Part shown: one piece after another, positions 1,512-64,000 of the stretch
Layout of the letters: every line of letters starts with the position of its first letter
Position numbering within the stretch: position 1 is the stretch's first letter
Origin: a virus
Taxonomy: Duplodnaviria; Heunggongvirae; Uroviricota; Caudoviricetes
DNA length: 64,000 nucleotides
IMG/VR virus record: IMGVR_UViG_3300037245_002365
Reading direction: 5' to 3' (one strand)
Made by a program: the position numbers and the translations under genes
Notes under the pieces: generated by a model
The model's database searches: none
Told to the model about the DNA's origin: nothing
What the model saw: only the letters and a program-made list of their open reading frames with translations

Positions 1512-1790
1512 TTACTCTGAAACAGGAAACGCTATGTTTAGCTCTTCAAACATTTTATCCATTACAGCATTTATAACTGTATTGGCTATGTTTGCTATTG
1601 CGTCTGTGTATTCAGCTGGAGTTCTAGTTGGAGCACTTTTGTCTTCTTCATACTCCCCACTCAGGTCATTCTCATCAACCGGCACGAGTGGGAAAGTGAC
1701 AATTTCAAGAGTTTTCCATTCTGTCTCAAATAGAGAGTGTGCAGCTTCTTTGGCTGTAGTAATTGTTGTTTGTTCAAATCTATTAGGCAT
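1512..1790 (-). CDS. Small acidic hypothetical protein, coupled to the upstream structural gene
   Basis: 92-aa ORF on the same strand as its neighbours. Its start overlaps the stop of the 1783..3567 gene. Confidence 0.5.
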   Translation of the reverse strand: MPNRFEQTTITTAKEAAHSLFETEWKTLEIVTFPLVPVDENDLSGEYEEDKSAPTRTPAEYTDAIANIANTVINAVMDKMFEELNIAFPVSE

Positions 1791-3567: not shown

Positions 3568-3570
3568 AGC

Positions 3571-3591
3571 TTAATGTAGTCACTACATTAA
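3571..3591. repeat. Inverted repeat TTAATGTAG-CAC-CTACATTAA in the divergent intergenic region
   Basis: Perfect 9-bp arms seen directly. It lies between the minus-strand structural genes and the plus-strand array. The related ACTACATTAAGA motif recurs at 6168-6185. Confidence 0.6.
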
Positions 3592-3606
3592 GATTAATCA
3601 AGCGTT

Positions 3607-3619
3607 TTTGGTATAAGAT
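3607..3619 (+). promoter_or_regulatory. Phage promoter-like motif TTGGTATAAGAT
   Basis: One copy of the recurring (A/T)TGGTATAAGAA motif found 25-70 nt upstream of ORFs. Resembles a TATAAATA-type late promoter. Confidence 0.45.
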
Positions 3620-3659
3620 TTTTATGGTTAACCTATTATTCTAAATTAAGGAGGACATT

Positions 3660-4103
3660 ATGGAGACTATCAACGTAGATTGGAGTAGAGAGAGGTATGA
3701 CATAACAAAATGGTTTCAGCTACCTACAGCAGCAGATGGATTAATAAAAATTGTTGACTTCGATCCAACTGCTCCACCACATCGAATTAGATTTCGTGAG
3801 AACTGGGACACCAAAAAGAAACCAACTCATTCAGGTCAGCTATTCTATAAAGATTTTTTTAACTTAGAACCTGATGCAGAACTAGTATTGCATGTGGATG
3901 GCCTTATGAAGCCTATACAATTTATAGGCCTTAAGATAGACCATTGGGGTGCGCAAAAATGCTGGTGTATGACTTACAGAAATAAAGATGGTTCAGAACT
4001 ATCAGCATCATTACATTATTTAGGAGCAGCAAAATCACGACCAACAGGCGGCTGGGCCGTACTTCGGTGGGTAACATTGAAGGAACAAGACAATGATAGA
4101 TAA
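3660..4103 (+). CDS. Tandem paralog family member 1 (unknown function)
   Basis: AAGGAGG RBS. Has the family motifs KP-x-HSGQLFYKDFFNLEPDAEL and C-terminal WVTLKE. Its N-terminus is longer than in the other members. Confidence 0.8.
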   Translation: METINVDWSRERYDITKWFQLPTAADGLIKIVDFDPTAPPHRIRFRENWDTKKKPTHSGQLFYKDFFNLEPDAELVLHVDGLMKPIQFIGLKIDHWGAQKCWCMTYRNKDGSELSASLHYLGAAKSRPTGGWAVLRWVTLKEQDNDR

Positions 4104-5858: not shown

Positions 5859-6149
5859 ATGAAGAACTTATTTAATACCCGCCTATTACTAAAAGATATG
5901 CGTCAACTACAACCACGAGATAGATTAATCTTTCACATACGTGATGGTGCACACAGAGAAGATGTTCCAGTAGAATTCCTCAATCTAGAGTTAGGTGGAA
6001 CCTATAGTCAAGGTGATTATAAATACTGGTGTGTCCGTTTTATATCTATGATGGGCAATGAGCGCGTAATGGGACTAAGAGTACTTAACGCAGTTAAGTA
6101 CAAGAATAACATGTACAGAGGCTACCATTACTTAACACGGGATATTTAG
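5859..6149 (+). CDS. Divergent or truncated member of the tandem family
   Basis: LLLKDMRQLQPRDRLIFH matches the family core. It lacks the TLKE tail. Confidence 0.6.
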   Translation: MKNLFNTRLLLKDMRQLQPRDRLIFHIRDGAHREDVPVEFLNLELGGTYSQGDYKYWCVRFISMMGNERVMGLRVLNAVKYKNNMYRGYHYLTRDI

Positions 6150-15601: not shown

Positions 15602-15868
15602 ATGAATATTACAGATAAGTTACAATTAAGCATATTAGGAGTGTTGTACGATTTGGCACCTCAAGGGTCGACAAATAGTGACACATCAATAGGAAGAACA
15701 CCTAGAACTCGGGTTGTCAAAGAAATATGTAAAGTATTAGAAAATGAGGAACAACAACGCATTGATGAGCTCGAAGCTGTTTTCAGAGAGATACGTGAGA
15801 CACATCAGTTTTACTTAGAACACGATCAAGCAATACTTGCAAAAATTAATGAGTTAGGAATAAAATGA
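15602..15868 (+). CDS. Hypothetical protein
   Basis: 88-aa ORF. Confidence 0.5.
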   Translation: MNITDKLQLSILGVLYDLAPQGSTNSDTSIGRTPRTRVVKEICKVLENEEQQRIDELEAVFREIRETHQFYLEHDQAILAKINELGIK

Positions 15869-16227
15869 CTAGACTAACACCACAACAGCAAAAGATTAAA
15901 GAACAAGAAAATGAAGTACGTATAGCTGAACTAGACTTAAAGAGCGCTAAAAATACCGTATGGTATGCAGAACGAAGGGTTGAAGAACAAAAAGAAAAAC
16001 TAAAAGTAATGAAAGCAGAAGAGCTGACTGAAGATGAAGAACTATTCATCCTTAGGCACTATGATGGCTTTGATAACATTTGGATTGATGTCACTTCACC
16101 AGCCTCAAAGAAAGCCACACAATTTGAGTATAATCAGCATACTGATAATGGCTCTAAAAATACCTGCTATGAAGATATAGACTATTATAAAATCTTCCCG
16201 GAAAACACTAGAATGCTTAGAAGTTAA
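15865..16227 (+). CDS. Hypothetical coiled-coil protein
   Basis: 120-aa ORF. Confidence 0.5.
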   Translation: MTRLTPQQQKIKEQENEVRIAELDLKSAKNTVWYAERRVEEQKEKLKVMKAEELTEDEELFILRHYDGFDNIWIDVTSPASKKATQFEYNQHTDNGSKNTCYEDIDYYKIFPENTRMLRS

Positions 16228-16239
16228 AGGAACTAAATT

Positions 16240-16509
16240 ATGAATGAAACAAAACCCTCAGCGAACACGTTAAAGACGTTTGCTGATGCTCTAAAAGATA
16301 TTACCACTTACAGAGAGTCTGATGGTTATTATAAATTATCAAATCGACTAATTTTTAAGATTCCTTCAGCTCCTGAAGAAGAAGGGTTTTACCACTTAAT
16401 TGCATTGGCTGAAAATGGCGGAACAACACAAGTTATTGTGCTAACAGACATAGAAGCAAGCACTTTACTTAAACTACTGCTATTAACTGATTCAATATGT
16501 TCTATATAA
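16240..16509 (+). CDS. Hypothetical protein
   Basis: 89-aa ORF. Confidence 0.5.
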   Translation: MNETKPSANTLKTFADALKDITTYRESDGYYKLSNRLIFKIPSAPEEEGFYHLIALAENGGTTQVIVLTDIEASTLLKLLLLTDSICSI

Positions 16510-16694
16510 ATGATAATTACATAAGAGGCCTCAAAGACGACAAAGAGTTTTTACGTAAACAGTTGTTTGACCTAATAACTAAGATGAATAGTACATTATC
16601 TGCCATCAGAAAGAATAATAAAGAAATAGGTAGACAAGAGAAAATAAGAACTGAACACCTGAAGGAAGAGTATGGAAGAGCGCCGAACAAATAA
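16497..16694 (+). CDS. Hypothetical small basic protein
   Basis: 65-aa ORF. Confidence 0.4.
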   Translation: MFYINDNYIRGLKDDKEFLRKQLFDLITKMNSTLSAIRKNNKEIGRQEKIRTEHLKEEYGRAPNK

Positions 16695-16916
16695 AGAATG
16701 AATAACATTTAGTTTAGTAGAGCACAATCCATGTTTTATGCTACTCGACACACATGCATTTCACCCATTTGAATTAAAACGTAAAACCGATTACTTAACT
16801 ATTAAAGATGACCCAATGTATGCTGAATGGCGATTCCGTGTTGATGGTTATTATAAAGGTGAATATTACTCAGACTTTGAGATATTAGGACATTATTAAA
16901 AATACAGGAGAAAGAA

Positions 16917-17231
16917 ATGGAAGAACGAAGAGTTAACATTATGACACATGATCAAAAAATCAAAAATGCTATATGTCCTACATGTGTTACATCTAAACCT
17001 ATGACAAAAATCACAGGAGAAACCCACGGGGGTTTCTACTGTTTTGAGTGTGGTGTACAATATCGTCCACCAGTATGTGAGTCACAAGACATGTCTGGAC
17101 AACGTTGGTTTAGAACTGATATAGTTGGTGGACCTAGGTGGGTAAAGAAACAAAATATAGAGATAACCACACTCCAATTACAAATGAAAGTTGCACTAGC
17201 AGCTTACATGGATTTAAAATACGGTAAATAA
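16917..17231 (+). CDS. Zinc-ribbon protein
   Basis: CPTCV...CFECG. GGAG RBS. Confidence 0.55.
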   Translation: MEERRVNIMTHDQKIKNAICPTCVTSKPMTKITGETHGGFYCFECGVQYRPPVCESQDMSGQRWFRTDIVGGPRWVKKQNIEITTLQLQMKVALAAYMDLKYGK

Positions 17232-29844: not shown

Positions 29845-30037
29845 TGAAAAAGATATTCAAGAGGATATGCCAGAACTACGTATATGTAGTAAATGCAAAT
29901 CATTAGTTAATAAACTGTATGGTTTGATGGTCCCGCACTTGTGTAAACAGTGCTATGACAAAATGGTGCAATATCAAGAACAAGTTGATTATAGATGCAG
30001 CTTATGTAAACAAATTTATGCAAAATGTTGCTGTTAA
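29831..30037 (+). CDS. Cys-rich small protein
   Basis: CSKCK...CKQCYDK...CSLCK. Confidence 0.45.
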   Translation: MQNHDEKDIQEDMPELRICSKCKSLVNKLYGLMVPHLCKQCYDKMVQYQEQVDYRCSLCKQIYAKCCC

Positions 30038-30065
30038 TATAGAAGAAGTATTAGAGGATAAAAAA

Positions 30066-30863
30066 ATGAGTGATAAAACGTCTCTCGGAGACAGAATGAA
30101 AATATATGAGAAACTTAACGCTACAGCGTTGATGCCTCATTTACCAGTAATAGCAAGGATTGATGGCCGGGCATTCCATACATTTTGTAGGGGCTTTGAT
30201 AAGCCTTTCGATATGAGAATGGTAGCAGCCATGCAATCAACAACGGAATTTATATTTAATGAATTCAATCCTATGTTTGCACATACATTCAGTGATGAAA
30301 TAAACCTAATGTGGTATTATCCAGAACCTGAACAACAAATGGTGTTTGGTGGAAAAATACAAAAACTTTGCTCAGTGCTAGCTTCAGCAGCTACACTTAG
30401 GTTCAATGAAGCAAAACTGGAACTCTTTGAGGGTAATCCAATTGCTGAAAGAAAAGCAATGTTTGATTGTAGAGTATGGAATGTACCTACAACAGATGAA
30501 GTAGCTAACTACTTTGTATGGCGTGAACAAGATGCAGCTCGTAATAGTTTACAGATGCTTTCAAGAGCACATTATTCACACCATGAGTTGGAAGGCAAGA
30601 AACAGGCTGACATGCACGAGATGTTATATAAGAAAGCCATTAATTGGAATGAACAGCCGATGATATTAAAAGCCGGTAGTTATTACAGACCGAACCCAAC
30701 AACTCCTGCGGAACTTGTAAAATCTCGATATCCAATGCTTGATGGAAGCTTACTGAACCTGCCATATAGTACGGATGGTAAAACTCCACATGAGCAACGA
30801 CTAAGATTCATATTTAGACCAGAAGAAAGGGAATACGATGGCACAGAAAAGAAAGCTGAGTGA
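30066..30863 (+). CDS. Thg1-like protein (tRNA-His guanylyltransferase family, 3'-5' nucleotide addition)
   Basis: VIARIDGRAFHTFCRGFDKPFDMRMVAAMQ...FAHTFSDEINLMWYY matches the Thg1 core VVVRLDGRNFHRF...YGQSDEYSFVF. Start placed at the ATG after a GAGGA RBS. The ORF track shows an upstream extension. Confidence 0.6.
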   Translation: MSDKTSLGDRMKIYEKLNATALMPHLPVIARIDGRAFHTFCRGFDKPFDMRMVAAMQSTTEFIFNEFNPMFAHTFSDEINLMWYYPEPEQQMVFGGKIQKLCSVLASAATLRFNEAKLELFEGNPIAERKAMFDCRVWNVPTTDEVANYFVWREQDAARNSLQMLSRAHYSHHELEGKKQADMHEMLYKKAINWNEQPMILKAGSYYRPNPTTPAELVKSRYPMLDGSLLNLPYSTDGKTPHEQRLRFIFRPEEREYDGTEKKAE

Positions 30864-31107: not shown

Positions 31108-31389
31108 ATGAATATTTTTCCGTGGATACTATTAATTATTCTTAGTGTCCTAATAATCAAATTTGGAAAAAGGGCTTTAAATTGGTTAGGCGACTTCATC
31201 GATAATACTAATGCTCCTTCGTCAGAAATGACGGATAGAGTTAAAGTAGCAAAGGGTGAAGTATCTGATCTCAAGGTTGAAAAGAAAACTCTTTCAACTG
31301 AAGTAAGTTCGGCAGGAAAGGCTAGTGATCTAAAGGCGGACATTGGCAAACTCAAAGGTAAACTAAAAACAAAGGAAGATAATGATTAA
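31108..31389 (+). CDS. Single-pass membrane coiled-coil protein, partner of the SPFH protein
   Basis: N-terminal TM helix, then a charged coiled coil. Its stop overlaps the next start. Confidence 0.55.
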   Translation: MNIFPWILLIILSVLIIKFGKRALNWLGDFIDNTNAPSSEMTDRVKVAKGEVSDLKVEKKTLSTEVSSAGKASDLKADIGKLKGKLKTKEDND

Positions 31390-32638
31390 AACATTATTGA
31401 CTAGATTCGCACCAGCATTGCTCCTAGTAGCAATTGTTGTTCTGGCTGTGTTCAGCCAACAGATTCTTGAAACAAACTCACGCGGCCAGTATCAAATTAA
31501 GCAGGCGGCTGTCACCGGTGACATGAGCGCACGCTTAGAACCCGGTATGTACGGCCAATGGTTTGGTGATATTGACACTTGGAACAAAGCGGAGACGTTT
31601 TATTTCACAGCTGACTTTGACGGCGAAGGTGATACTAAAGCAGATAAATCAATTGAAGTACGCTTCAATGATGGTTCTATCGCTAAAATATCCGGCACAG
31701 CTCGAATCACATTACCATACACTGAAGCTGAAGCAGTCGCTTTGGTTGCTGATCATGGTTATAAAAGTTACAAGGAACTAGCACAGAAATTGGTTCTTCC
31801 TTCGGTTCGAAATGCATTACGATCCAGCGCTAACTTGATGTCAGTACGTGAAAGTTATTCTGAAAACAGACTTGATTTTATTAACTGGTCCCGAGATCAG
31901 CTGCAAAACGGTTTGTATAATACAGAAGAGATTACGAAGAAAGTTACTGATATATTAAGTGGTGAACAGGTTACCAGGACATTCAAAACGATACAGAAAG
32001 ATGCCAGCGGTACTCCAGTTTATCAGTTCAATCCTTTTGATGGTAAGGGAATAACAATTTCAAACTTTGAAATTAAGTCATTCAATTACTCTCCGAAGGT
32101 ACGTGAGCAGATTGCGGCTCAACAAGCAGCTTTGATGGCTGTTCAGACCGCACGAGCATTAGCGAAAGAAGCTGAGCAAAAAGCACTTACTACAGAGGCT
32201 GAGGGAAAAGCTGAGGTTATGCGCGTTAAATATGAAAACGAGCAAAACAAAATCGCGGCTATCATCAAAGGCGAACAAAGGCGTGATGTTGCTGAGTTAG
32301 CAAAAGCTGAAGCCGGGTTCACCAAGGAAGCTCAAATCCTAATCGCAGACGGTGAGGCTTATCGTAAGAGAGAAGTCATGGCCGCCGATGGTGCATTGGA
32401 TAAAAAGCTAGCAGCATTAGTTACAATTAATGGAGCTTTTGCCAAGGCTGTTGAAAATCATGTTGGTGCTTGGGTACCATCCATCGTATTTGGTGGGGGT
32501 GGATCAGGAGGATCGTCTGATTTGACTAATGGTATGAACGGCGTTCAAAACATGGTTGATTTGTTGACTCTTGCAGCAGCAAAAAACCTGTCTCTTGATA
32601 TGACGCTACCAACAACGTCGAAAACGGCTGTTCAATAG
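31382..32638 (+). CDS. SPFH/band-7 (stomatin/prohibitin/HflKC-like) membrane protein
   Basis: N-terminal TM helix, then an SPFH-like domain. Ala/Glu/Lys-rich coiled coil (EAEQKALTTEAEGKAEV...AKAEAGF) and a Gly-rich C-terminus. Confidence 0.55.
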   Translation: MIKTLLTRFAPALLLVAIVVLAVFSQQILETNSRGQYQIKQAAVTGDMSARLEPGMYGQWFGDIDTWNKAETFYFTADFDGEGDTKADKSIEVRFNDGSIAKISGTARITLPYTEAEAVALVADHGYKSYKELAQKLVLPSVRNALRSSANLMSVRESYSENRLDFINWSRDQLQNGLYNTEEITKKVTDILSGEQVTRTFKTIQKDASGTPVYQFNPFDGKGITISNFEIKSFNYSPKVREQIAAQQAALMAVQTARALAKEAEQKALTTEAEGKAEVMRVKYENEQNKIAAIIKGEQRRDVAELAKAEAGFTKEAQILIADGEAYRKREVMAADGALDKKLAALVTINGAFAKAVENHVGAWVPSIVFGGGGSGGSSDLTNGMNGVQNMVDLLTLAAAKNLSLDMTLPTTSKTAVQ

Positions 32639-39888: not shown

Positions 39889-40632
39889 TTGGAATTATTA
39901 ATAAATGCTGGCGATTTTGAGTTACTCACACCGCCAGACGAATTGCGGGCACAAATGCGCCGTATGGAAAGAGCAGGTAGAACCTGCTATCAGTCAGAGA
40001 TCGGTGAAATCACCGATGTCACTGCTGAAAACTTTGTAAGAAAAATATTGCATCAGTTCCACCATGAGAGTGTAATTGAACATAGCTCTTTAACAGTGAA
40101 ATTTACAGGTGTATGCCGTGGATTCACTCATGAATTAGTACGTCACAGATTAGCGTCTTTCTCTCAGGAAAGCACACGATATGTAGACTATGCTAAATCT
40201 GAAACTAAGGGTGCTGCAGACATAGTAGACCTTGATAGATTTGAATTACGTTGTGTTGCACCACCACACAGAGATGTGGATGAAAAATTTCAAGTCCATG
40301 ACAATTTCACTGGGCATGTAATGAAGTCTTACAGAGATATGCTTGAAGAAATGGAAGCCAACTACAAAGCTTTACGTAAAGCTGGTTGGGTACCACAAGA
40401 TGCAAGGCAAATACTGCCAATAGCAACTGAAAGTGATATTGTTGTTACGGCTAACTGGAGAGAATGGAGACACATTCTTACAATGAGAACGGGTAAACCT
40501 GCTCATTGGGAAATTAGGCGTGTAATGTGCAACTTACTGCAAGTATTACAGGAAACTATCCCAGTAATATTTGAAGATTTTGTAGAAGCAGGTACTAGCG
40601 ATGGTGTTCTATATTATTCAAGATTCAAGTAA
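39889..40632 (+). CDS. thyX: Flavin-dependent thymidylate synthase ThyX
   Basis: ELVRHRLASFSQESTRY is the ThyX RHRxxSxxxxSxRY signature. The start appears to be TTG. Confidence 0.75.
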   Translation: MELLINAGDFELLTPPDELRAQMRRMERAGRTCYQSEIGEITDVTAENFVRKILHQFHHESVIEHSSLTVKFTGVCRGFTHELVRHRLASFSQESTRYVDYAKSETKGAADIVDLDRFELRCVAPPHRDVDEKFQVHDNFTGHVMKSYRDMLEEMEANYKALRKAGWVPQDARQILPIATESDIVVTANWREWRHILTMRTGKPAHWEIRRVMCNLLQVLQETIPVIFEDFVEAGTSDGVLYYSRFK

Positions 40633-41222: not shown

Positions 41223-41404
41223 TTTCAAAGATTAAAAAAGTTATTCTAATATATGACTGTGAATATTTAGAAGAAGAGGTAGAAGTTGAAATTACTGATA
41301 ACATTGTATTGTCAGAGTATACTCGTGGATTAGATGTGATTGCTGAAGTGTATTGTTCGTGTATGCGTTTACACAAATTCATACTAAAAAAAGAAGAACG
41401 ATGA
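41219..41404 (+). CDS. Hypothetical small protein
   Basis: 61-aa ORF coupled to its neighbours. Confidence 0.4.
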   Translation: MISKIKKVILIYDCEYLEEEVEVEITDNIVLSEYTRGLDVIAEVYCSCMRLHKFILKKEER

Positions 41405-42564
41405 AATTTACACACGACAAATTACAAGAGTATATAGATAAGAAAATGCTGATGCGACAGAAGCATCCAGTATTCGATTACTATATCTATAACTATACTC
41501 CAGAGGTACAATTTAAGAAACTCTGGAACCCTACGCTTATGGCATGTAGAGGCCTAATTTTGGATGGAGACAGCAATGTTATTGCTCGACCATTTACTAA
41601 GTTCTTTAATTACTCTGAATTAGGACCATCTGCAAGAGGAACACTCAATAGACGGGTTAGTGAAGTCTACGAAAAAATGGACGGTAGCTTGGGTATAATG
41701 TACCCCCACCCTGGTTTTGAAGAGTTTAGTATTGCAAGCAGAGGAAGTTTTACCTCTCCGCAGGCACTATTCGGTACTGATTTATTGAATAATAAATACA
41801 GGAAGTGGACTAAACATTTTAGATATGAACCAGAAAATTTCCCAGAGAACAGTATTTTTCTAGCAGAAAAAACAGTAATTTTTGAGATAATTTATCCCGA
41901 AAACAGAATAGTAGTTAACTATGGCGATATGGAAGATATGGTTTATCTAGGTGTTGTTGAAAACAGTACCGGAAACGATCTTTATCCAGTAATAGAAAAA
42001 GACTGGCCCTTTCCTGTTGTTCGTAGATACACAGAATTAGAAAACCTCACTATGGATGAATTGGTAGAGCGTGTTAACAACCACGAAGATTACGGTAATA
42101 ACCGTGAAGGTTACGTGGTAAAATTTAAGAACGGCTCTCGAACCAAATTGAAATATCCTGATTATATCAGGTTACATCGAATAATGACTGATATGAGTGA
42201 GAAACGAATTCTTGAAGCAGTGATCCAAGGACCGCTGTCTGAAGAATTCTTGGATGGTGTTCCAGATGAATGCTATGATTGGCTGAAAGATGTAGAGAAA
42301 CGATTCAGAGCTGAATACGAAACAATCAAATTATCTTGCCAGCTATTCTATCAACAGTGCCAATTAAAACAGATAGGGGACGCACCAAAGTTCACCAGAA
42401 AAGATTGGGCATTAGCATTTCTTAAGACGCCTTACCCAGCAGTGCTATTTAATATGCTAGATGGAAATGATTATTCACCAGCGATTTGGGCCAAAATTGA
42501 GCCTAAACCCGGAAAACAAACCTTTCAGACGTCTGGATATAATAGAACTAAAGAAAAGACTTGA
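41401..42564 (+). CDS. rnlA: RNA ligase 1 (T4 Rnl1 family)
   Basis: LMACRGLILDGDSNVIARPFTKFFN ... EKMDGSLG ... IASRGSFTSPQA aligns with T4 Rnl1 [27 protein letters not shown] ... KEDGSL ... KSKGSIKSEQA. Start placed at the ATGA overlap. Confidence 0.7.
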   Translation: MKFTHDKLQEYIDKKMLMRQKHPVFDYYIYNYTPEVQFKKLWNPTLMACRGLILDGDSNVIARPFTKFFNYSELGPSARGTLNRRVSEVYEKMDGSLGIMYPHPGFEEFSIASRGSFTSPQALFGTDLLNNKYRKWTKHFRYEPENFPENSIFLAEKTVIFEIIYPENRIVVNYGDMEDMVYLGVVENSTGNDLYPVIEKDWPFPVVRRYTELENLTMDELVERVNNHEDYGNNREGYVVKFKNGSRTKLKYPDYIRLHRIMTDMSEKRILEAVIQGPLSEEFLDGVPDECYDWLKDVEKRFRAEYETIKLSCQLFYQQCQLKQIGDAPKFTRKDWALAFLKTPYPAVLFNMLDGNDYSPAIWAKIEPKPGKQTFQTSGYNRTKEKT

Positions 42565-43776: not shown

Positions 43777-44211
43777 ATGATTAAAGATCATTATGTTGCA
43801 GGCTTTGTCTTTGACAAAGAACTAGAACATATCTATTTAATTAGAAAAAACAGACCAAGTTGGCAGGAAGGCTTGCTAAATGGAATCGGCGGACACATAG
43901 AGGCTAATGAGTCTCCACTATCCGCAGTGGTTAGAGAGTTTATAGAAGAAACTGCCACTAAAGTAAATGCAGAAGATTGGCATCATATTGCTACCATATC
44001 CAGCAAACCAGATAAAACTTCTGGATTCCCATGGGAATGCTGGTTTTTCATGGCAGTTACTGGACAGACTCCAGTAACCAATACAGATGAAGAAGTTGTT
44101 AAAGTTAGATTAACTGACTTACATGATGGGGACGTAATACCAAATTTAAACTGGTTAATACCTTTAGCACTGCATGGTGAGAAAAGTTGGCCAGTGATAG
44201 CAAATGAGTAA
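43777..44211 (+). CDS. Nudix hydrolase
   Basis: Nudix box GGHIEANESPLSAVVREFIEETA (Gx5Ex7REUxEExGU). Confidence 0.7.
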   Translation: MIKDHYVAGFVFDKELEHIYLIRKNRPSWQEGLLNGIGGHIEANESPLSAVVREFIEETATKVNAEDWHHIATISSKPDKTSGFPWECWFFMAVTGQTPVTNTDEEVVKVRLTDLHDGDVIPNLNWLIPLALHGEKSWPVIANE

Positions 44212-44221
44212 AGGAACATAA

Positions 44222-44653
44222 ATGATATTTTCAGCAGGTGTGATGATCAGAAGAACATCCGATAATAACGTTTTAATATGTCGACCCCTCATGGGTAAGA
44301 CAGCACGCTCTTTTCCAAAGGGAGAAGTTGATGACGGAGAAACTTACGCCCAAACAGCAAAAAGAGAAACTTTTGAAGAAACAAATATAGACCTTCCATT
44401 AGAATCTCTAAAGTATATGGGTCAGTTTAAATATGTTAAGAGAAATAAAACTATCGTTCTATTCTCTGCAACAATAGATGACAAGGATTTACCGGATGAG
44501 CTTATTTGCTCATCAACGTTCCAGCTAAAGGGCAAAGGCCCTCAGTTACCAGAAGTAGATAAATTTGAATGGGTAACCATTTCAGATGCTATCGAACTTG
44601 TGCATGAAGCACAATCAAGGGTCGTTAAGAATTACGTGACAGAAAAAATGTAA
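44222..44653 (+). CDS. Nudix hydrolase (second copy)
   Basis: Nudix box GEVDDGETYAQTAKRETFEETNI. Confidence 0.7.
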   Translation: MIFSAGVMIRRTSDNNVLICRPLMGKTARSFPKGEVDDGETYAQTAKRETFEETNIDLPLESLKYMGQFKYVKRNKTIVLFSATIDDKDLPDELICSSTFQLKGKGPQLPEVDKFEWVTISDAIELVHEAQSRVVKNYVTEKM

Positions 44654-56328: not shown

Positions 56329-56538
56329 ATGATATTTGACATGCAGGAATGGATGTACGAGTGGGTGGAAGAACACAAAGACAAACAAGATGATGGAACC
56401 ATCAAAGTAAGCATCTTCGGAGAAGACGCTGTAATATTTGATGACGGGGAAGATGCAGATGACTTCCTATGGAATTTAGCACCAGATGAATACCATGAGT
56501 ATATGTCTGGTTATGGAGAGGATTTAAAAGATGAGTGA
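56329..56538 (+). CDS. Acidic small protein
   Basis: 69-aa ORF with a GGAGAT RBS. Confidence 0.45.
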   Translation: MIFDMQEWMYEWVEEHKDKQDDGTIKVSIFGEDAVIFDDGEDADDFLWNLAPDEYHEYMSGYGEDLKDE

Positions 56539-56839
56539 AGAAGAAAAAGAAATGACGACAGATGAGTTTTCAGAAATCGTTAAGGAAGGTATAACACTAG
56601 TAGATTTTTATGCTGATTGGTGTGGACCTTGTAAACAGATTGCACCAATATTAGAAGAACTTACTGATGTTAGAGTTCTAAAAGTTAATGTAGATGAGCA
56701 CAAAGATGTGACAACACTGCACGGGGTACGTAGTATTCCAACAGTATTTTTATATAAAGACGGTATAGTAGTTAAGTCACTTTTGGGTGCAAACTCAAAA
56801 GAAACCTACCAAAAAGCAATTGATGCATTAATCGAATAA
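56531..56839 (+). CDS. trx: Thioredoxin
   Basis: WCGPC active site, about 100 aa. Confidence 0.8.
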   Translation: MSEEEKEMTTDEFSEIVKEGITLVDFYADWCGPCKQIAPILEELTDVRVLKVNVDEHKDVTTLHGVRSIPTVFLYKDGIVVKSLLGANSKETYQKAIDALIE

Positions 56840-57731: not shown

Positions 57732-58289
57732 ATGTTAGAATTAGAAATGAACTCAGTAGACTTGGAACCTAGGTTGCGACAAGTACAAGAAGTAGACATG
57801 ACCCGTACAGTGTGTACCTCCTGTGGTGAGGGAACTTATAGGGAAACTTTATTTTTTGATGATATGGATGGTGTTTTACACTGCGAAATATGTAATCATG
57901 AAACTAAAAGATGGCAAAAACCAATCACAACTGGTGAGCCCGTTTATGTAACTAGCTTTGATTTAACTAAAGTAGTGGTTGCAGACGATTTGATTTATAA
58001 AGAACCACCACGAGTAGTACACCTCAAAGTGGAACCTTATGACGTGTATATAGGCAGGCCCTCAATTTGGGGTAACCCCTACTCACACAAGAGTGACACA
58101 TTAGCAGAATTTAAAGTGTCCAGTAGAGAAGAAGCTGTAGAATGTTACAGAACTTGGTTTCCTAAACAAGAAGGCGCTTTAGAAGCGGTAAAGGATTTGA
58201 GAGGACAAATACTAGGTTGCTGGTGTAAGCCTAAAGCTTGCCACGGCGACGTATTACTAGAATTAGCAAACGCAGAAAAGGAAGAGTAA
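57732..58289 (+). CDS. Zn-ribbon plus DUF4326-like protein
   Basis: CTSCGEG...CEICNH, then VYIGRPSIWGNPYSH...CWCKPKACHGD, which is typical of DUF4326. Confidence 0.5.
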   Translation: MLELEMNSVDLEPRLRQVQEVDMTRTVCTSCGEGTYRETLFFDDMDGVLHCEICNHETKRWQKPITTGEPVYVTSFDLTKVVVADDLIYKEPPRVVHLKVEPYDVYIGRPSIWGNPYSHKSDTLAEFKVSSREEAVECYRTWFPKQEGALEAVKDLRGQILGCWCKPKACHGDVLLELANAEKEE

Positions 58290-58462
58290 ATGCCAGAAAC
58301 AGAAGAAACTTGTATATGGTTAGAAAAGTGGTGGGCAGCAGATAACTTTCATGACGAATATTATTATACAACTTGCTCGACTAATGTAGAATATAATGAT
58401 GCAAAAGAATACAAATATTGTCCATTTTGTGGAAAACTAATAATGAAAATCAAGGAATAAAA

Positions 58463-58840
58463 ATGTTATTAAAAATAACTAGAGAATTTCTTAGAGCACA
58501 TCCAAATTATATATTTGTGTTCGGAGACAATTTATTAAGACGCGGAACTGGTGGAGCAGCCGCATTACGTGATGTGCCCAATACATATGGATTCATTACC
58601 AAAAAGACCCCCACCCACGATGACGCAGCCTATTTTACTCCTGAAGAATACGCAGACGTATTCAAAGAAGAGTATGGTAAATTGGCGGTTGCCATAGATT
58701 ATAATGGTGACACAAATACTAAGTATTTCATATCGAAACTTGGATCAGGCTTAGCGAATAAGTTTGGAATTTTTGAGCAAGTAATAAATCCAAGAATCTT
58801 GGATTTAGACAAATACCCTAATGTAACACTTTTATGGTAA
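58463..58840 (+). CDS. Rossmann-like (LOG/SLOG-like?) hypothetical protein
   Basis: IFVFGDNLLRRGTGGAAALR is a Gly-rich loop after a beta strand. Start placed at the ATG after AAGGAA. Confidence 0.35.
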   Translation: MLLKITREFLRAHPNYIFVFGDNLLRRGTGGAAALRDVPNTYGFITKKTPTHDDAAYFTPEEYADVFKEEYGKLAVAIDYNGDTNTKYFISKLGSGLANKFGIFEQVINPRILDLDKYPNVTLLW

Positions 58841-59068: not shown

Positions 59069-59085
59069 AAATGAAGAGGTAATTT

Positions 59086-59095
59086 GGTATAAGAA
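59086..59095 (+). promoter_or_regulatory. GGTATAAGAA promoter-like motif
   Basis: Exact motif 45 nt upstream of 59140. Confidence 0.45.
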
Positions 59096-59139: not shown

Positions 59140-59940
59140 ATGTCAAAAGACGTTCGTTTAGTACTTATCGATATCCAGAATGACTTCTGCGATCCTATTG
59201 GATCACTGTATGTCGCTGGTGCAGAAGAAGACGCTTCAAGAGTGGCGACTATGATAGGGCGATTAGGCTCTAGAATTAGTAAAATCCATTTAACCATGGA
59301 TTCTCACCGCCCATTTGATGTGGCGCATCCAATTTTTTGGACAAATAGTGATGGTAAACACCCAGACCCATATACTCCGATTTCCGTCGATGACGTGAAA
59401 AACGGCGTATGGCTCACATCTATTCCTGGCCTACAAAAATACGTCTTGGGATACGTAGAGGCTTTAGCCTCTAAGGGTAAGTATGGCTTGTTTATCTGGC
59501 CAGAGCATTGTTGCATTGGTACATGGGGACATGGAATTTTCCCAGTAGTATCAGAAGCAGTAATGGATTGGGAACGTGATTTGGTCACGATGTCAGATAT
59601 TGTAACTAAAGGGAGCAATCCTTTTACGGAGCATTATTCGGCTATTGAGGCAGAAGTTCCCAGTGACAATGACCCCACCACTCAATTAAACACCGCATTT
59701 ATCGATACTCTGCAAGATGCAGATATTGTGGCAATTGCCGGTGAAGCCTTGAGCCACTGTGTTGCAAATACTGTTAATGACATCATTAAGAAATTTGGTG
59801 ATGACCATACTAAGAAAATAGTATTGTTGACAGATGCTTGCAGTAACGTTACTAACTTTGAAGGCCTGGGCGATACCTTTGTAGCAGAAGCTACAGCCAA
59901 AGGTATGCAGGTTTCAACCACAATCGAATTCTTAAAATAA
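59140..59940 (+). CDS. Isochorismatase-family cysteine hydrolase (nicotinamidase/PncA-like)
   Basis: VLIDIQNDF carries the catalytic Asp motif. ...ALSHCVANTV contains the Cys. Confidence 0.6.
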   Translation: MSKDVRLVLIDIQNDFCDPIGSLYVAGAEEDASRVATMIGRLGSRISKIHLTMDSHRPFDVAHPIFWTNSDGKHPDPYTPISVDDVKNGVWLTSIPGLQKYVLGYVEALASKGKYGLFIWPEHCCIGTWGHGIFPVVSEAVMDWERDLVTMSDIVTKGSNPFTEHYSAIEAEVPSDNDPTTQLNTAFIDTLQDADIVAIAGEALSHCVANTVNDIIKKFGDDHTKKIVLLTDACSNVTNFEGLGDTFVAEATAKGMQVSTTIEFLK

Positions 59941-59951
59941 GGAAGCACTAC

Positions 59952-60695
59952 ATGTCAGAACATGAAGACGTTATGGCGCAAATGACCACAGGTTCAAACT
60001 ATGGTTTCAGTGCCGTCAATCTTGACAATATTGAAGCAACGGAAATTACCTTGGTGACTATCGTTGTGGATACGTCATATTCCTTAGATGGTCAGGCAAA
60101 ATCATTGGAAGATATGATTAAAGCAGCCATCGGCTCTTGTCAGAAAAGCCCACGGGCTGAAAATGTGATGATAAGGTTAGTTACCTTTAATCGCACTGAG
60201 CATGAAGAGCATGGTTTCAAACTGTTGAGCACAATTGACCTTGCTGATTATGATGGCATGATCACCATTCAAGGCAATACACTGCTCTTTGATACAGCCG
60301 CGCACTCCTTGGAAGCAATACAAAAGTATGGTAAAGACCTTAACGATAATCGTTATCTTACCAATGCAATTGTGTTCTTCATCACTGATGGTGCGGATAC
60401 GCATTCAACTTACACGCCGAATACAATCAAGAATTTGATTGCAGAGATTCGTCGGTCGGAAGACCTCGATTCGCTTGCAACTGTCTTGATCGGCATGAAC
60501 AAAGAAGCGTATGTTCAGCAATATCTTGATACCTTCAAGAATGATGCTGGCCTTGACCATTATCATGAAATGGGTGATGTTACTCCAGAGAAACTGGCTA
60601 TATTGGCCGGTTACATCAGTACCAGCATTCAGTCATCTTCACAAGCAATAACGACTGGTGGTCCCTCAAAGACCCTGGGCGATTTGAAGTTCTAG
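59952..60695 (+). CDS. vWA-domain protein (TerY-like)
   Basis: MIDAS motif DTSYSL...T...ITDGAD. Confidence 0.65.
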   Translation: MSEHEDVMAQMTTGSNYGFSAVNLDNIEATEITLVTIVVDTSYSLDGQAKSLEDMIKAAIGSCQKSPRAENVMIRLVTFNRTEHEEHGFKLLSTIDLADYDGMITIQGNTLLFDTAAHSLEAIQKYGKDLNDNRYLTNAIVFFITDGADTHSTYTPNTIKNLIAEIRRSEDLDSLATVLIGMNKEAYVQQYLDTFKNDAGLDHYHEMGDVTPEKLAILAGYISTSIQSSSQAITTGGPSKTLGDLKF

Positions 60696-61523
60696 GTGCA
60701 TTCAGATAGTCATTTCCTAATTGGGCATAGTCACCGTGTATGCGAGGACTATGCCCTTTCTGGGATTACCGAAGACGGTTTTACTCATTACGCAATAATA
60801 TCTGATGGATGTTCAGATTCCAAGAAGCATCATTCAAAAGCTAAAACAGACCTCGGAGCAAGAATTCTTGCTCATTGTGCTGTGCGTGCTATAAACAATA
60901 TCTTTACGGAGTTGTTTGATGTAAGTAATTTACACCGTATCATGGGAAAAATTATCATTAACAATGCACAAAGAGTAATAAGAGACCTTGGTTTACCTGA
61001 GGCTTCTTTGGACGCAACTTTAATAATTAGTATAGTAACTCGTGATGGTAGTTCATTCGTGTTTTTTTACGGTGACGGTACAGTCGCTTATAGAAAAGAC
61101 GATCTTGAAACACTGTACACAATATCCTATCCTTCAAATGCACCTTATTATTTATCATATCTTTTGAACAATGATAGAAATACGGCATACTTTGAAGAAT
61201 TTGGTAATACCTATACTATAGAAAGGCACAGTCTGAATGAGAAACTTGTTGTAGAAAACACAGTAGATGAATATGCAATAAGTTGTAAAGATGTTTGTAT
61301 TTGCGATGTAGGTGATATCATAACTATAATGTCGGATGGTGTGGACACGTTTGAGAAATTAGACGGGTCTGAATTACCACACAACGTTGTTGCAGATATA
61401 ACCGACTTCAAACGTACAGCAGGTGAGTATGTTACACGTCAAATGATTTGGTTAGCGAATAGAAACACTAAACAAGACATTGTACATAAAGACGATTTCT
61501 CAATGGCATCTATATGCCTTTAA
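60696..61523 (+). CDS. PP2C-family Ser/Thr phosphatase
   Basis: GHSHRVCEDYA...YAIISDGCSDS...YGDGT are PP2C-like metal-binding Asp motifs. GTG start abuts the vWA stop. Confidence 0.55.
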   Translation: MHSDSHFLIGHSHRVCEDYALSGITEDGFTHYAIISDGCSDSKKHHSKAKTDLGARILAHCAVRAINNIFTELFDVSNLHRIMGKIIINNAQRVIRDLGLPEASLDATLIISIVTRDGSSFVFFYGDGTVAYRKDDLETLYTISYPSNAPYYLSYLLNNDRNTAYFEEFGNTYTIERHSLNEKLVVENTVDEYAISCKDVCICDVGDIITIMSDGVDTFEKLDGSELPHNVVADITDFKRTAGEYVTRQMIWLANRNTKQDIVHKDDFSMASICL

Positions 61524-61541
61524 AAAGCAGAAGGGGTTGCC

Positions 61542-63242
61542 ATGTCGAGACAAGTACTCATTAAAAATGTTGGAAATGTGACATTGACAGATAATAACTT
61601 TGTAGGTGCTGGCGGCGAAGCTGCTGTGCATAGACAAGGTAATCATGCAATAAAGGTTTATCATGACGAAGGCAAAACATTACCTGAAAAGAAAATAATC
61701 GAATTAGGTAATATTAGGGCTACAAATGTATTAAAGCCTTTACATTCTGTATACGATACCAAGACTAATAATCTTATCGGATACGCAATGCAGTATGTTG
61801 ATGGTACACATCCAATATGTAAACTGTTTACAAAATCGTTCAGAAACAAATACAATATAGATCACAGAATGATATACAAGTTAGTCAACTCTATACAGGA
61901 GACTGCTGCTAGTATTCATTTCGATAAGTGTTTAATAGTAGACTTCAATGAAATGAACCTACTAACTTCCAGTGACTTCAAAATACCATACTTTATTGAT
62001 GTGGATAGTTATCAGACTCCCTCATTCCCGGCAACGGCTTTGATGGAATCAATACGAGACCACACTTCCCCTCTGGGGAAGTTCAGTATTTATACTGATT
62101 GGTTTGCCTTCGGTATCTTGGCATTCCAGCTATATATTGGTATCCACCCCTTCAAGGGTAGACATCCAAACTATAAACCTGGAGATTGGCAGCAACGGAT
62201 GGAAGACGGTATATCTGTGTTTAACAAAGATGTACAACTTCCGCCAGTATGCAATCCCTTTGCTATAATACCCCCACGACATAAAGATTGGTTTGAAGAT
62301 ATGTTCGTTAATAATAACCGTAGTGAACCACCACGGATGGACTCAAGCGAACCAATAACCATGGAAGTAAAACGTGTTGTAATAAATTCAACAAATCTAT
62401 TTGACATCAAAGAGATTGTTGAGTTGGAATCGAAGTTCGATATAGTTACTTCTGCTTACAGCTTTGTAGGACAGAAGCACTATGTTACGCAGGATCGAAT
62501 CTATGCGGGTAAACGTCTCATACAGGACGGTTTGGCCAAAGAGAAAAACGATAAGATACTGCTAGCTTCGTCACCAACCAGTAGACCTGTCATATGCAAA
62601 TTAAAAGACAAATTCCTATCCATGTATGAAATGGACGGTGGATATCTTGGAAAAATACCTTGCAAAGGTGCAACGGTAATTTCCGGACGGCTCCTTGCTG
62701 TATCAACCATGGGTTTGACTGAAGTTGAGTTTAAAGAATATGGCGGTAAACTGACTTATTTTGAAAAGGTGGGGTCAGGAGCTGGTGAGCATTCTAGGTT
62801 ATTTGACGGAGTACTCTGTCAAAATCTATTAGGCAAACCATTCCTAACTGTACCCACAGAAAGCGGGTTCGCTTCCTACAAAACAGTAGAGTTAGAAGAC
62901 TATAGAGTCATAGACATGAAACTGGAACGGAACATCTGTGTTCTAATGGCTGAAAAGAAAGGAATCTATTATAGGTTCGTATTCATTTTCGACCATAAAA
63001 AACACACCTATGATCTAAGAATTACAAAAGACGTTCCTTTTGACGCAATTAACTTTACAGTTACTAGGAAAGGTATCTGCATTCTATCGACTGAAAACAA
63101 CCAATTGGAACTCTTTAGAGATAACCGCGCCGTTAAGGTTGTGGAGAACTCTCCAATAGATTCTTCAATGACATTGTTTAGTTTTGACAATACTGTGTAT
63201 TTCGCACATGAAAACAAAGTAATGTCAATTACAATGAAATGA
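61542..63242 (+). CDS. Ser/Thr protein kinase-like protein with a C-terminal extension (566 aa)
   Basis: Gly loop VGAGGEAAVH, then AIKVY (VAIK Lys). HFDKCLIVDFNEMN looks like the catalytic loop and IDVDSY is DFG-like. The C-terminal ~280 aa is unassigned. Confidence 0.55.
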   Translation: MSRQVLIKNVGNVTLTDNNFVGAGGEAAVHRQGNHAIKVYHDEGKTLPEKKIIELGNIRATNVLKPLHSVYDTKTNNLIGYAMQYVDGTHPICKLFTKSFRNKYNIDHRMIYKLVNSIQETAASIHFDKCLIVDFNEMNLLTSSDFKIPYFIDVDSYQTPSFPATALMESIRDHTSPLGKFSIYTDWFAFGILAFQLYIGIHPFKGRHPNYKPGDWQQRMEDGISVFNKDVQLPPVCNPFAIIPPRHKDWFEDMFVNNNRSEPPRMDSSEPITMEVKRVVINSTNLFDIKEIVELESKFDIVTSAYSFVGQKHYVTQDRIYAGKRLIQDGLAKEKNDKILLASSPTSRPVICKLKDKFLSMYEMDGGYLGKIPCKGATVISGRLLAVSTMGLTEVEFKEYGGKLTYFEKVGSGAGEHSRLFDGVLCQNLLGKPFLTVPTESGFASYKTVELEDYRVIDMKLERNICVLMAEKKGIYYRFVFIFDHKKHTYDLRITKDVPFDAINFTVTRKGICILSTENNQLELFRDNRAVKVVENSPIDSSMTLFSFDNTVYFAHENKVMSITMK

Positions 63243-63364
63243 TGGCAGGCGGGGTGATGAGGTATTTGATGGTTTCGACCATTCTCATATGATGTTAATC
63301 AAAATTAAAGCCACTGGAACCCCGCTTATCATTACCAAGCATATAAATATAAGGAACAAAAATA

Positions 63365-64000
63365 TTGAGTATACCAGAAGAAAAATCTACCGCACCAGAA
63401 AAAACTCTCACACCACTAAACGCAGATTTCGAAGAAGATTTAGATAATGGTGTTGAAGACCAAAAAGTGGACCCTGAGCATCAGTCTAATTTAAGTCCTT
63501 GGGAAAATGAAGAAGACAACGCATTATACATGGCACCCCCTGCTGATCACCGTAACATAGTAAGAAATATAACTAGGGGAATGCAACAACATAATGAAGG
63601 AACAACCGTTGTTCAAGCCAATCAATACTCTAATGCCGTAAGCACTGCCCTAAAGGGTAATAGGCTTAGATGGTTAAGAGATAAATTGAATGGGCTCTCA
63701 TTATCTAGTGCGGAGACAATAGAATTTACAATAGATCGAAGCGAGAGAGAAAAAGTTAAGAAAATACTTACCTCTCTTGGAGAAATATTATTGAGTGCGC
63801 CAACACTTGTTAATACTTTATATAAAGACTCTTTATTGACTTCTAAGATTGTATCCAGAAGTCAGCATGTTGATATTTCTATCACTGCTTTCTCGGACAC
63901 ACCAGAAAAAACAGAAGCGATATTAGATGAATTAAGAAAATTGACTGAATTCGCGGTCACAGAAGCATTATTGGTGGATATAAATTGGTATTTTAGAGGC
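63365..64000 (+). CDS. Hypothetical acidic protein, truncated at the window end
   Basis: ORF open to position 64000. TTG or internal ATG start. Confidence 0.45.
   Translation, partial: MSIPEEKSTAPEKTLTPLNADFEEDLDNGVEDQKVDPEHQSNLSPWENEEDNALYMAPPADHRNIVRNITRGMQQHNEGTTVVQANQYSNAVSTALKGNRLRWLRDKLNGLSLSSAETIEFTIDRSEREKVKKILTSLGEILLSAPTLVNTLYKDSLLTSKIVSRSQHVDISITAFSDTPEKTEAILDELRKLTEFAVTEALLVDINWYFRG

Follow-up and report, generated by a model that had tools for sequence, protein, structure and literature searches.

The TerY-P triad of bacteria (Anantharaman et al. 2012; Gao et al. 2020) encodes a von Willebrand factor A (vWA) protein, a PP2C phosphatase and a protein kinase together, and is linked to ter, McrBC/CoCoNuT, DNA-processing and WXG/FtsK genes. 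PMC11090510 and PMC4978471 propose that it works as a phosphorylation switch, and its kinases end in a C-terminal Zn-ribbon (in the CoCoNuT-linked forms) or an OB fold (in the stand-alone defence forms) (PMC11090510). E. coli encodes the same three domains in yegL-pphC-(yegJ)-yegI, where YegI and PphC are an active kinase/phosphatase pair (10.1101/819920, 10.1101/303594) and PphC dephosphorylates YegI (10.1101/303594). Here we analyse a stretch of 64,000 nucleotides (the window) from a Caudoviricetes virus (IMG/VR record IMGVR_UViG_3300037245_002365), which carries a triad of this kind with a gene for a predicted nicotinamidase directly in front of it. We refer to the four genes as the tetrad and to their products as PncA-like protein, vWA protein, PP2C and kinase.

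The phage triad shares both its three domains and its gene order with the E. coli locus, but the two differ in several respects: YegI is a two-pass membrane protein without a sensor domain, whereas the phage kinase is soluble and carries a probable β-propeller; the phage kinase family keeps the αC Glu and the catalytic-loop Asn, both of which YegI has lost; and no nicotinamidase or nicotinamide adenine dinucleotide (NAD+) genes lie near the E. coli triad. An earlier reading of the window, made from the sequence alone (the sequence-only reading), had matched the three genes to TerY-P. The vWA, PP2C and kinase domains and their order bear this out, while the remainder of the match does not stand, as the kinase has a probable propeller instead of a Zn-ribbon or OB fold, the linked genes encode PncA, PncB, NadD, NadE and NrtR rather than ter, restriction or WXG functions, and the bacterial loci are not in defence islands. 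The tetrad is thus the known YegI/TerY-P-like triad with a new sensor domain and with a new conserved enzymatic partner and context. Its genes, and a promoter-like motif in front of them, are located in the window as follows.

59085-59095, + strand: promoter-like motif tGGTATAAGAA (TGnTATAAG), resembling an extended -10
59140-59940, + strand: PncA-like nicotinamidase gene, 266 aa, ATG start
59952-60695, + strand: vWA gene, 247 aa, ATG start
60696-61523, + strand: PP2C phosphatase gene, 275 aa, GTG start
61542-63242, + strand: kinase gene, 566 aa, ATG start

The four co-directional genes span 59140-63242 (4.1 kb with PncA, 3.3 kb from the vWA start), and the successive gaps, read directly at the junctions, are 11, 0 and 18 nt. 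An 11-nt spacer follows the PncA stop codon TAA, which is overlapped by an AAGGAAG ribosome-binding site; the GTG of the PP2C gene abuts the vWA stop codon TAG; and the 18-nt spacer before the kinase gene contains GAAGGGG. The tight linkage claimed for the last three genes in the sequence-only reading is therefore correct to the base. The GTG start is also supported, because the PP2C N-terminus aligns residue for residue with its homologs (the first residue aligns with an N-terminal Met in at least 90% of 45). The same reading had proposed one transcription unit with a promoter motif at 59086, and the motif is real: GGTATAAGAA occupies 59086-59095, 45 nt 5' of the PncA-like ATG, and is found eight times exactly in the window, always on the + strand, where 0.24 occurrences are expected. 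The copies start at 6149, 7224, 17531, 23289, 31064, 38201, 47625 and 59086, usually with a T preceding; all eight lie 10-84 nt 5' of an open reading frame (ORF), seven of them directly after the end of the preceding ORF, and none falls within the cassette. We regard GGTATAAGAA as a candidate promoter class of this phage genome. Because it sits 5' of the PncA gene and is absent from the interior of the cassette, a single transcription unit beginning 5' of 59140 is plausible, and the junctions suggest that in the window the four genes are translationally coupled behind this one promoter-like motif. We detected no intrinsic terminator 3' of the kinase gene; a 7-nt inverted repeat (GCGGGGT...ACCCCGC, 64-nt spacer) at 63249-63326, 3' of the kinase, is not a canonical one.

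We fetched loci around kinase homologs (80 from IMG/VR and 80 from GTDB) and labelled their ORFs with jackhmmer. The order PncA>vWA>PP2C>kinase is found in 65/80 IMG/VR and 37/80 GTDB loci, and most exceptions are truncated contigs. Where both 8-kb flanks are complete, 57/62 viral and 21/30 bacterial loci contain all four genes. The association is reciprocal: when contexts are picked by PncA similarity alone, 4/4 hold the other three genes. It also tolerates rearrangement, as one locus (L173) has the permuted order PP2C-kinase-PncA-vWA, and in phage loci 0.5-4 kb of unrelated inserts often part the tetrad genes while collinearity is kept, the version in the window being the most compact. The linkage spans several bacterial phyla and diverse huge phages at 30-55% protein identity. 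The conserved unit is thus a tetrad led by the nicotinamidase gene, whose product is also its best-conserved enzyme, in an arrangement far from chance. This modifies two points of the earlier reading: homologous triads do recur in related phages, but as part of the PncA-led tetrad (the 57 of 62 viral loci above); and the product of the first gene, noted there as an adjacent isochorismatase-like hydrolase, does have the isochorismatase fold but, by its conserved linkage, is a core member rather than a mere neighbour.

The bacterial tetrad loci come from Armatimonadota, Acidobacteriota, Spirochaetota and Myxococcota. We considered whether they could be prophages or mis-binned phage contigs and rejected this for the three loci L105, L089 and L120, whose copies are chromosomal and not prophage because their flanks are housekeeping genes; some of the short contigs of metagenome-assembled genomes may still be of such origin. 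In L105, a complete 4.4-Mb Capsulimonadaceae chromosome, PncB lies directly 3' of the kinase and the flanks encode LeuA, a serpin, a histidine kinase, an FGGY kinase and an MFS transporter; L089 and L120 are flanked by housekeeping genes plus one NADAR-domain protein. Among viruses, the PncA-like protein and the kinase match the same four metagenomic records out of 50,697 GenBank phage records, three of which are uncultured phages of 462-595 kb, and no near-identical DNA was found in GenBank phages. The kinase has more than 848 full-length homologs, and its identical sequence is present on a 228-kb JGI contig (3300043172 Ga0484852_0000003); homologs of the PncA-like protein number more than 2,400. 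We also considered a fifth conserved gene, lying between PP2C and kinase in some relatives, but rejected it because the intervening ORFs are heterogeneous. On the 3' side, 19 bacterial loci, mostly Acidobacteriota, encode a protein of ~740 aa (an N-terminal S-adenosylmethionine (SAM)-methyltransferase domain and a C-terminal region of ~570 aa) at a median of 35 bp from the kinase (for example L116 9726-11948 and L120 9728-11950), and this protein may be a lineage-specific fifth component.

Now we consider which genes accompany the tetrad. Neighbours within ±8 kb were identified in 168 loci (88 viral, 80 bacterial) by all-against-all ORF clustering, Pfam confirmation and profile searches, and the recurrent families related to NAD+ are the following.

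NrtR (Nudix plus NrtR winged helix): neighbour in ~60-65 loci
PncB (NAPRTase): neighbour in 51 loci
NadE: neighbour in ~30 loci
NadD-like nucleotidyltransferase: neighbour in ~15 loci
WGR-PARP: neighbour in ~11 loci, ~8 viral and 3 bacterial

One or more of NrtR, PncB, NadE and NadD accompany the kinase in 52/88 viral and 48/80 bacterial loci, and in about two thirds of the complete tetrad loci (37/57 viral, 16/21 bacterial). The genes can be interleaved with the tetrad itself, as in PncA-vWA-PncB-PP2C-KIN and PncA-vWA-PP2C-PncB-NadE-KIN (KIN being the kinase gene), and among the families inserted inside it PncB ties for the highest count. A 2.28-Mb Spirochaetota contig (L089) carries PncB-NadE-PncA-vWA-PP2C-KIN-NrtR on one strand, and a 536-kb phage contig (L085) carries PncB-NadE-PncA-vWA-PP2C-KIN-NrtR-NadD. 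Since PncB is present in 27 of the 57 complete viral tetrad loci while ±8 kb makes up at most ~8% of a genome of at least 200 kb, we infer that its linkage is far above random placement. Nicotinate is converted to NAD+ by PncB, NadD and NadE (the Preiss-Handler route), and the frequent embedding of the tetrad among salvage genes suggests that NAD+ recycling is under protein-phosphorylation control; the evidence points to NAD+/nicotinamide metabolism as the process controlled. NrtR is described as an ADP-ribose-responsive repressor of NAD genes (PMC2330246, summarised in PMC9503650).

Several further observations touch on NAD+ chemistry. WGR-PARP genes lie within 8 kb of the tetrad, for example at 15692-16969 of both L017 and L018, 13738-15150 of L006 and 1-489 of L007; PARP consumes NAD+ and releases nicotinamide. 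No PARP was found in the 64-kb window. In L120 an NADAR-domain protein adjoins NrtR (2891-4069, - strand). The window itself encodes tandem Nudix hydrolases 15 kb 5' of the tetrad, at 43777-44211 and 44222-44653 (+ strand; Pfam NUDIX 1.5e-11 and 3.3e-15), which have no NrtR winged helix and could act on ADP-ribose or NADH.

The identification of the first enzyme draws on several lines of evidence. Its catalytic triad (D11/K157/C207) is invariant in 46 locus-derived and 62 database homologs and aligns to that of Pnc1. In the metal site, D54 and H123 are invariant in both alignments and H56 is invariant in one and conserved in at least 90% of the other; D54/H56/H123 correspond to D51/H53/H94 of yeast Pnc1, with the DxH and WPxHC motifs aligned. 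In nicotinamidase structures, the pyridine nitrogen of the substrate binds at this Asp-His-His metal site. A profile search of PDB sequences returned six matches, all nicotinamidases: yeast Pnc1 (2h0r, at 2.9e-12), M. tuberculosis PncA and the enzymes of P. horikoshii, A. baumannii and Leishmania. The AlphaFold2 (AF2) model has a mean predicted local distance difference test score (pLDDT) of 94, and the twelve best Foldseek matches are without exception nicotinamidases (E 1.6e-14 to 9e-10; template modelling score relative to the target 0.53-0.82), with other isochorismatase-fold amidases (maleamate amidase, biuret hydrolase, N-carbamoylsarcosine amidase) at lower ranks. The match to NCBIfam PncA is 1e-9. 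As a single sequence the protein scores 21.2 bits against Pfam Isochorismatase, below the cutoff of 27; family alignments, structure prediction and fold search strengthened this below-cutoff call and that of Pkinase for the kinase. The protein is ~50 aa longer than Pnc1 and the canonical enzymes, with a conserved insert at residues ~64-117 (compared with Pnc1, one insert of roughly 25 aa within the ~50 extra residues), and mean pairwise identity in the family is 59%. Compared with known PncA/Pnc1 enzymes, then, triad, metal site and fold are the same, but the phage subfamily is longer and tied to the triad genes. Taken together, the catalytic triad, the metal site, the predicted fold and the genome context indicate a PncA/Pnc1-type nicotinamidase, and the genomic coupling to PncB supports hydrolysis of nicotinamide to nicotinate and ammonia as its predicted reaction.

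The sequence-only reading had called the other three products a MIDAS-containing vWA protein, a PP2C-like phosphatase and a Ser/Thr kinase-like protein with a large C-terminal extension, and all three calls are borne out. The residues whose absence would have spoken against that reading, namely the catalytic Lys and Asp of the kinase and the PP2C metal ligands, are conserved. The vWA protein scores 24.6 bits against Pfam VWA (cutoff 23.8), and its metal-ion-dependent adhesion site (MIDAS) is complete, with D40-x-S42-x-S44, T110 and D146 invariant in 46 homologs. Mean pairwise identity is 53% over the whole protein and 71% in a Ser-rich C-terminal tail (~215-247), in which S223, S225, S230 and G236 are invariant; no other segment of the system is as well conserved. 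The hhalign match to E. coli YegL is weak (E 6.5e-4, probability 28%) but has the MIDAS aligned. PP2C scores 32.1 bits against Pfam PP2C_2 (cutoff 24), and D18, D37-G38, G126-D127-G128, D214-G215 and D266-D267 are invariant in 45 homologs at a mean pairwise identity of 37%. We number metal motifs I, II, VIII and XI by position, the alignment to E. coli PphC covering motifs I and II only. The profile match to PphC is weak; within it, D37 aligns with the motif-II Asp (DGAGS), so that it corresponds to PphC D46, which is reported to be essential (10.1101/303594). The vWA and PP2C family profiles gave no match to PDB sequences at E<=0.01.

The kinase gene encodes two parts:

61542-62336, + strand: Hanks-type, YegI-like Ser/Thr kinase domain, residues 1-265
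62400-63242 including the stop codon, + strand: C-terminal all-β domain, residues 287-566

A single-sequence search gives 16.3 bits against Pfam Pkinase, below the cutoff of 31.7. In alignments of 41-75 full-length homologs, however, G24-G25 of the G-loop, K38, the αC E54, D134, N139, D153 and D186-W187 are invariant or nearly so; D134 and N139 form the catalytic loop, and D153 lies in a DVD that replaces DFG. The Hanks-type features (G-loop, VAIK Lys, αC Glu, catalytic Asp/Asn, DFG-equivalent Asp, bilobal fold) are thus all present. Homology to E. coli YegI is strong (hhalign probability 98%, E 6e-14) and extends to atypical motifs: GGEGAVY versus GGEAAV, a non-HRD catalytic loop, and D-x-D-S-[FY]-Q instead of DFG. 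S156 and T159 of the activation loop are invariant, and S156 matches by motif position (DVDS in the phage, DSDS in YegI) the YegI residue S162, which is essential for autophosphorylation (10.1101/819920). A small-molecule kinase (APH/ChoK-like) was considered and rejected on the protein-kinase fold matches, the conserved activation-loop Ser/Thr and the PP2C partner.

The AF2 model of the kinase (pLDDT 91.7) confidently predicts an all-β structure for the C-terminal ~280 residues. DSSP assigns 28 strands in 7 groups of ~4, with the first strand so positioned that it could close the last blade; Foldseek finds LRRK2 (a kinase followed by a WD40 domain) as the best match to the full-length protein and the propeller sensor BT4673 (3ott) as a match to the C-terminal half. 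From these models we conclude that the domain is probably a seven-bladed β-propeller. Searching with this domain alone (phmmer, 1.84 billion representatives) gave 799 matches (50%-identity clusters). Because the full-length matches share a size of 555-585 aa with the domain at ~280-565, it is exclusive to this kinase family. At 34% mean pairwise identity the propeller is the fastest-evolving part (versus 51% for the kinase domain), and it is likely the sensor of the system. Pfam finds neither TerY_C nor an OB match in the kinase at E<=1, and none of the four tetrad proteins has a transmembrane segment.

Drawing these observations together, we propose that the tetrad is one functional unit in nicotinamide/NAD+ salvage, in which the nicotinamidase step is gated by a reversible kinase/PP2C/vWA phosphorylation switch; from sequence and context we give this reading a probability of about 55%. 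Sir2, TIR, PARP or ART enzymes release nicotinamide when they cleave NAD+, and the nicotinamidase would convert this nicotinamide to nicotinate, the entry of the Preiss-Handler route, with PncB, NadD and NadE coming in this phage from distant genes of its own or from the host. The soluble kinase would sense a cue through its propeller, autophosphorylate on S156/T159 and then pass phosphate to another protein, the likeliest acceptor being the vWA protein in its Ser-rich C-terminal tail. The vWA MIDAS would in turn bind or release the nicotinamidase or another target (its partner being acidic or phosphorylated, and possibly PncA itself), and PP2C would reset the switch. In huge phages such a module could maintain or restore NAD+ levels while infection proceeds, either to withstand NAD+-depleting host immunity or to supply phage enzymes that consume NAD+, or both. 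A more specific version, in which the propeller-kinase detects NAD+ depletion, NADase attack or a protein marker of it and, through the vWA adaptor and PP2C reset, switches the nicotinamidase so that flux returns to NAD+, is tentative, and we would sooner doubt it than rely on it.

We prefer the vWA tail as candidate substrate because of its 71% conservation and because of the precedent of archaeal ArnB, a vWA protein whose C-terminal region is phosphorylated by the eukaryotic-like protein kinases ArnC and ArnD, controlling complex formation (PMC6509490). The ArnA-ArnB-ArnC/D-PP2A system likewise combines an intact-MIDAS vWA protein with a phosphatase reset and so offers a mechanistic precedent for the phage tail. 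It differs in that ArnB has extra β-sandwich and four-helix-bundle domains, a forkhead-associated (FHA) protein acts as the reader, the system controls transcription of motility genes, and it has no connection with NAD.

Qualitatively, a salvage unit would join known phage biology, as jumbo-phage NAD+ synthesis clusters and phage NAD+ reconstitution as counter-defence are established (PMC11662467; bioRxiv 10.1101/2024.02.11.579819; PMC13464706). The jumbo phages of PMC11662467 have complete salvage/Preiss-Handler sets with pncB-nadD-nadE clusters, and no kinase, phosphatase or vWA protein is mentioned there. Relatives of the tetrad also carry pncB, nadD and nadE clustered with it, but while such genes are present in many relatives, L085 and L089 among them, they do not accompany PncA in the window. 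The reconstitution pathways NARP1 (Adps+Namat), NARP2 (Nampt+Nmnat) and NARP3 (PnuC+NadR-like) (PMC13464706) are also phage routes that restore NAD+ from breakdown products or precursors under NAD+-depleting immunity, a purpose that is plausible for the tetrad too. They use other enzymes and no signalling module, whereas the route of the tetrad would be deamidation to nicotinate; none of the NARP1-3 families is found among the four tetrad proteins, the rest of the window not having been scanned specifically for NARP genes. Targeted full-text literature searches found no paper that links pncA or nicotinamidase with a PP2C, vWA and kinase module, and the Aravind-lab survey of viral NAD+-ADP-ribose systems (PMC9503650) does not mention PncA, nicotinamidase, TerY or PP2C. 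Within the literature searched, the tetrad and its NAD linkage appear to be previously undescribed.

Several points weigh against a salvage switch. PncB, NadE, NadD and NrtR were not found in the 64-kb window (tblastn/jackhmmer) or in the next 10 kb of the contig, so that use of nicotinate in this lineage would rely on host enzymes or distant phage genes, and the nearest relatives (L009-L013) carry the bare tetrad. The matches of the vWA protein and PP2C to the E. coli triad are weak. Removal of nicotinamide could relieve product inhibition of host NADases, such that the benefit to the phage is not self-evident. Linkage alone fits a triad that regulates PncA as well as a PncA that is the effector of a sensor system. 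Finally, the low conservation of the propeller (34%) fits variable protein targets in a conflict better than a universal metabolite, and this keeps alive an alternative in which the tetrad is a TerY-P-type conflict system: the triad would be the sensor of a defence, superinfection-exclusion or counter-defence module (the last two being roles that the sequence-only reading had suggested), and PncA its effector, which the kinase switch would unleash once a competitor or a host defence is sensed, destroying nicotinamide and thereby starving the NARP1/NARP2-type NAD+ reconstitution of rival phages or rewiring NAD+ signalling. NAD+-depleting defence leaves nicotinamide and ADP-ribose behind, and phages answer with NARP1-3. 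NARP1 and NARP2 both consume nicotinamide (PMC13464706), and TerY-P-like modules give anti-phage defence (Gao et al. 2020, as summarised in PMC11090510 and PMC7699616). The gene order shared with YegL-PphC-YegI, the YegI-like kinase, a propeller that evolves fast, in the manner of conflict-system sensors, and the occasional PARP and NADAR neighbours would all fit. Even so, we consider this alternative unlikely: the kinase has neither Zn-ribbon nor OB fold; no ter, restriction, McrBC/CoCoNuT, WXG/FtsK or secretion module is found among the recurrent neighbour families of the 168 loci; and the bacterial copies sit among housekeeping genes, beside PncB, NadE and NrtR, which suggests salvage over destruction. 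PADLOC returned no match for the vWA protein and PP2C and only weak ones for the others, PD-T4-6/mad6 for the kinase and PDC-M10B for the PncA-like protein, all at E > 0.008; the E. coli controls YegL and PphC were also without match, and YegI matched only PD-T4-6, MkoA and similar models, so that this comparison is uninformative on TerY-P membership.

The four genes might instead be independent neighbours, PncA being an ordinary auxiliary metabolic gene and the triad a separate phosphorylation module for host takeover. Huge phages do pack many unrelated auxiliary genes together, unrelated inserts do part the tetrad in many phage loci, and the neighbours in the window mix tRNA/RNA-repair, nucleotide and other genes; yet the linkage is reciprocal, is kept over phyla and huge phages and survives both insertion and permutation, and in the window the four genes appear coupled behind one promoter-like motif, all of which makes independence improbable. 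We give still less credence to the idea that the first enzyme, as a cysteine amidohydrolase, hydrolyses an amide other than nicotinamide (for instance in a modified nucleotide, signalling molecule or protein side chain) and that the triad controls this chemistry. That would be in keeping with the sub-threshold Pfam score, the insert and extra length relative to Pnc1 and the many amidases that the isochorismatase fold houses, as seen lower in the fold search, but is opposed by the invariant Asp-His-His metal site, by the fact that every PDB sequence match and the top 12 fold matches are nicotinamidases, and by PncB, the pathway partner, as the most frequent linked enzyme.

Depleting NAD+ is one of the main ways in which bacteria resist phages, and its reversal by phages through NARP1-3 is a very active field. 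To our knowledge the known phage NAD+ routes are all bare enzyme pairs, bacterial control of NAD+ has so far been mainly transcriptional (NrtR, NadR, NiaR), and we know of no substrates of TerY-P-like triads, even in E. coli. The widespread cassette described here ties the entry enzyme of nicotinamide recycling genetically to a kinase/phosphatase/vWA switch. Should the switch indeed control salvage, NAD+ homeostasis in bacteria would prove to be regulated post-translationally, and TerY-P-like triads would gain a concrete, testable output. Were the more specific version given above to hold, eukaryotic-like Ser/Thr phosphorylation would for the first time be seen to control NAD+ salvage in prokaryotes and their viruses, and phages would have a fourth route for rebuilding NAD+, a regulated one. 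The hypothesis is directly testable because the tetrad is compact, soluble and readily expressed.

The surroundings of the cassette in the window are of a different kind. Directly 5' are two genes that are not conserved with the tetrad elsewhere, and 122 nt after the kinase stop begins an AAA ATPase gene that is not a recurrent tetrad neighbour elsewhere; these and the auxiliary genes of huge-phage type found farther 5' are:

57732-58289, + strand: DUF4326 protein with an N-terminal Zn-ribbon-like region
58418-58840, + strand: DUF7831 protein
63365-64000, continuing past the window end (L004 11824-13170): AAA ATPase (PF00004), 448 aa, TTG start
29955-30863: Thg1-like tRNA-His guanylyltransferase
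31382-32638: SPFH/Band-7 protein
39889-40632: ThyX
41353-42564: T4 Rnl1-like RNA ligase
56531-56839: thioredoxin

Farther 3' on the contig are genes for a PspA/IM30 protein and a glutamate-receptor-like ion channel (SBP_bac_3 plus Ion_trans). At the other end of the window, genes change orientation and the GC/AT skew changes sign at about 4 kb, positions 1-~4000 being transcribed opposite to the rest; a 594-aa ORF there (1783-3567, - strand) has no Pfam match. In the relatives L007, L170 and L173, genes for RNA ligase, RtcB and Band-7 proteins are again found close to the tetrad, and Cas12f/TnpB-like genes (OrfB_IS605, Cas12f1-like_TNB) are present on tetrad-bearing huge-phage-like contigs, at 1-136 of L006 and 1-162 of L170.

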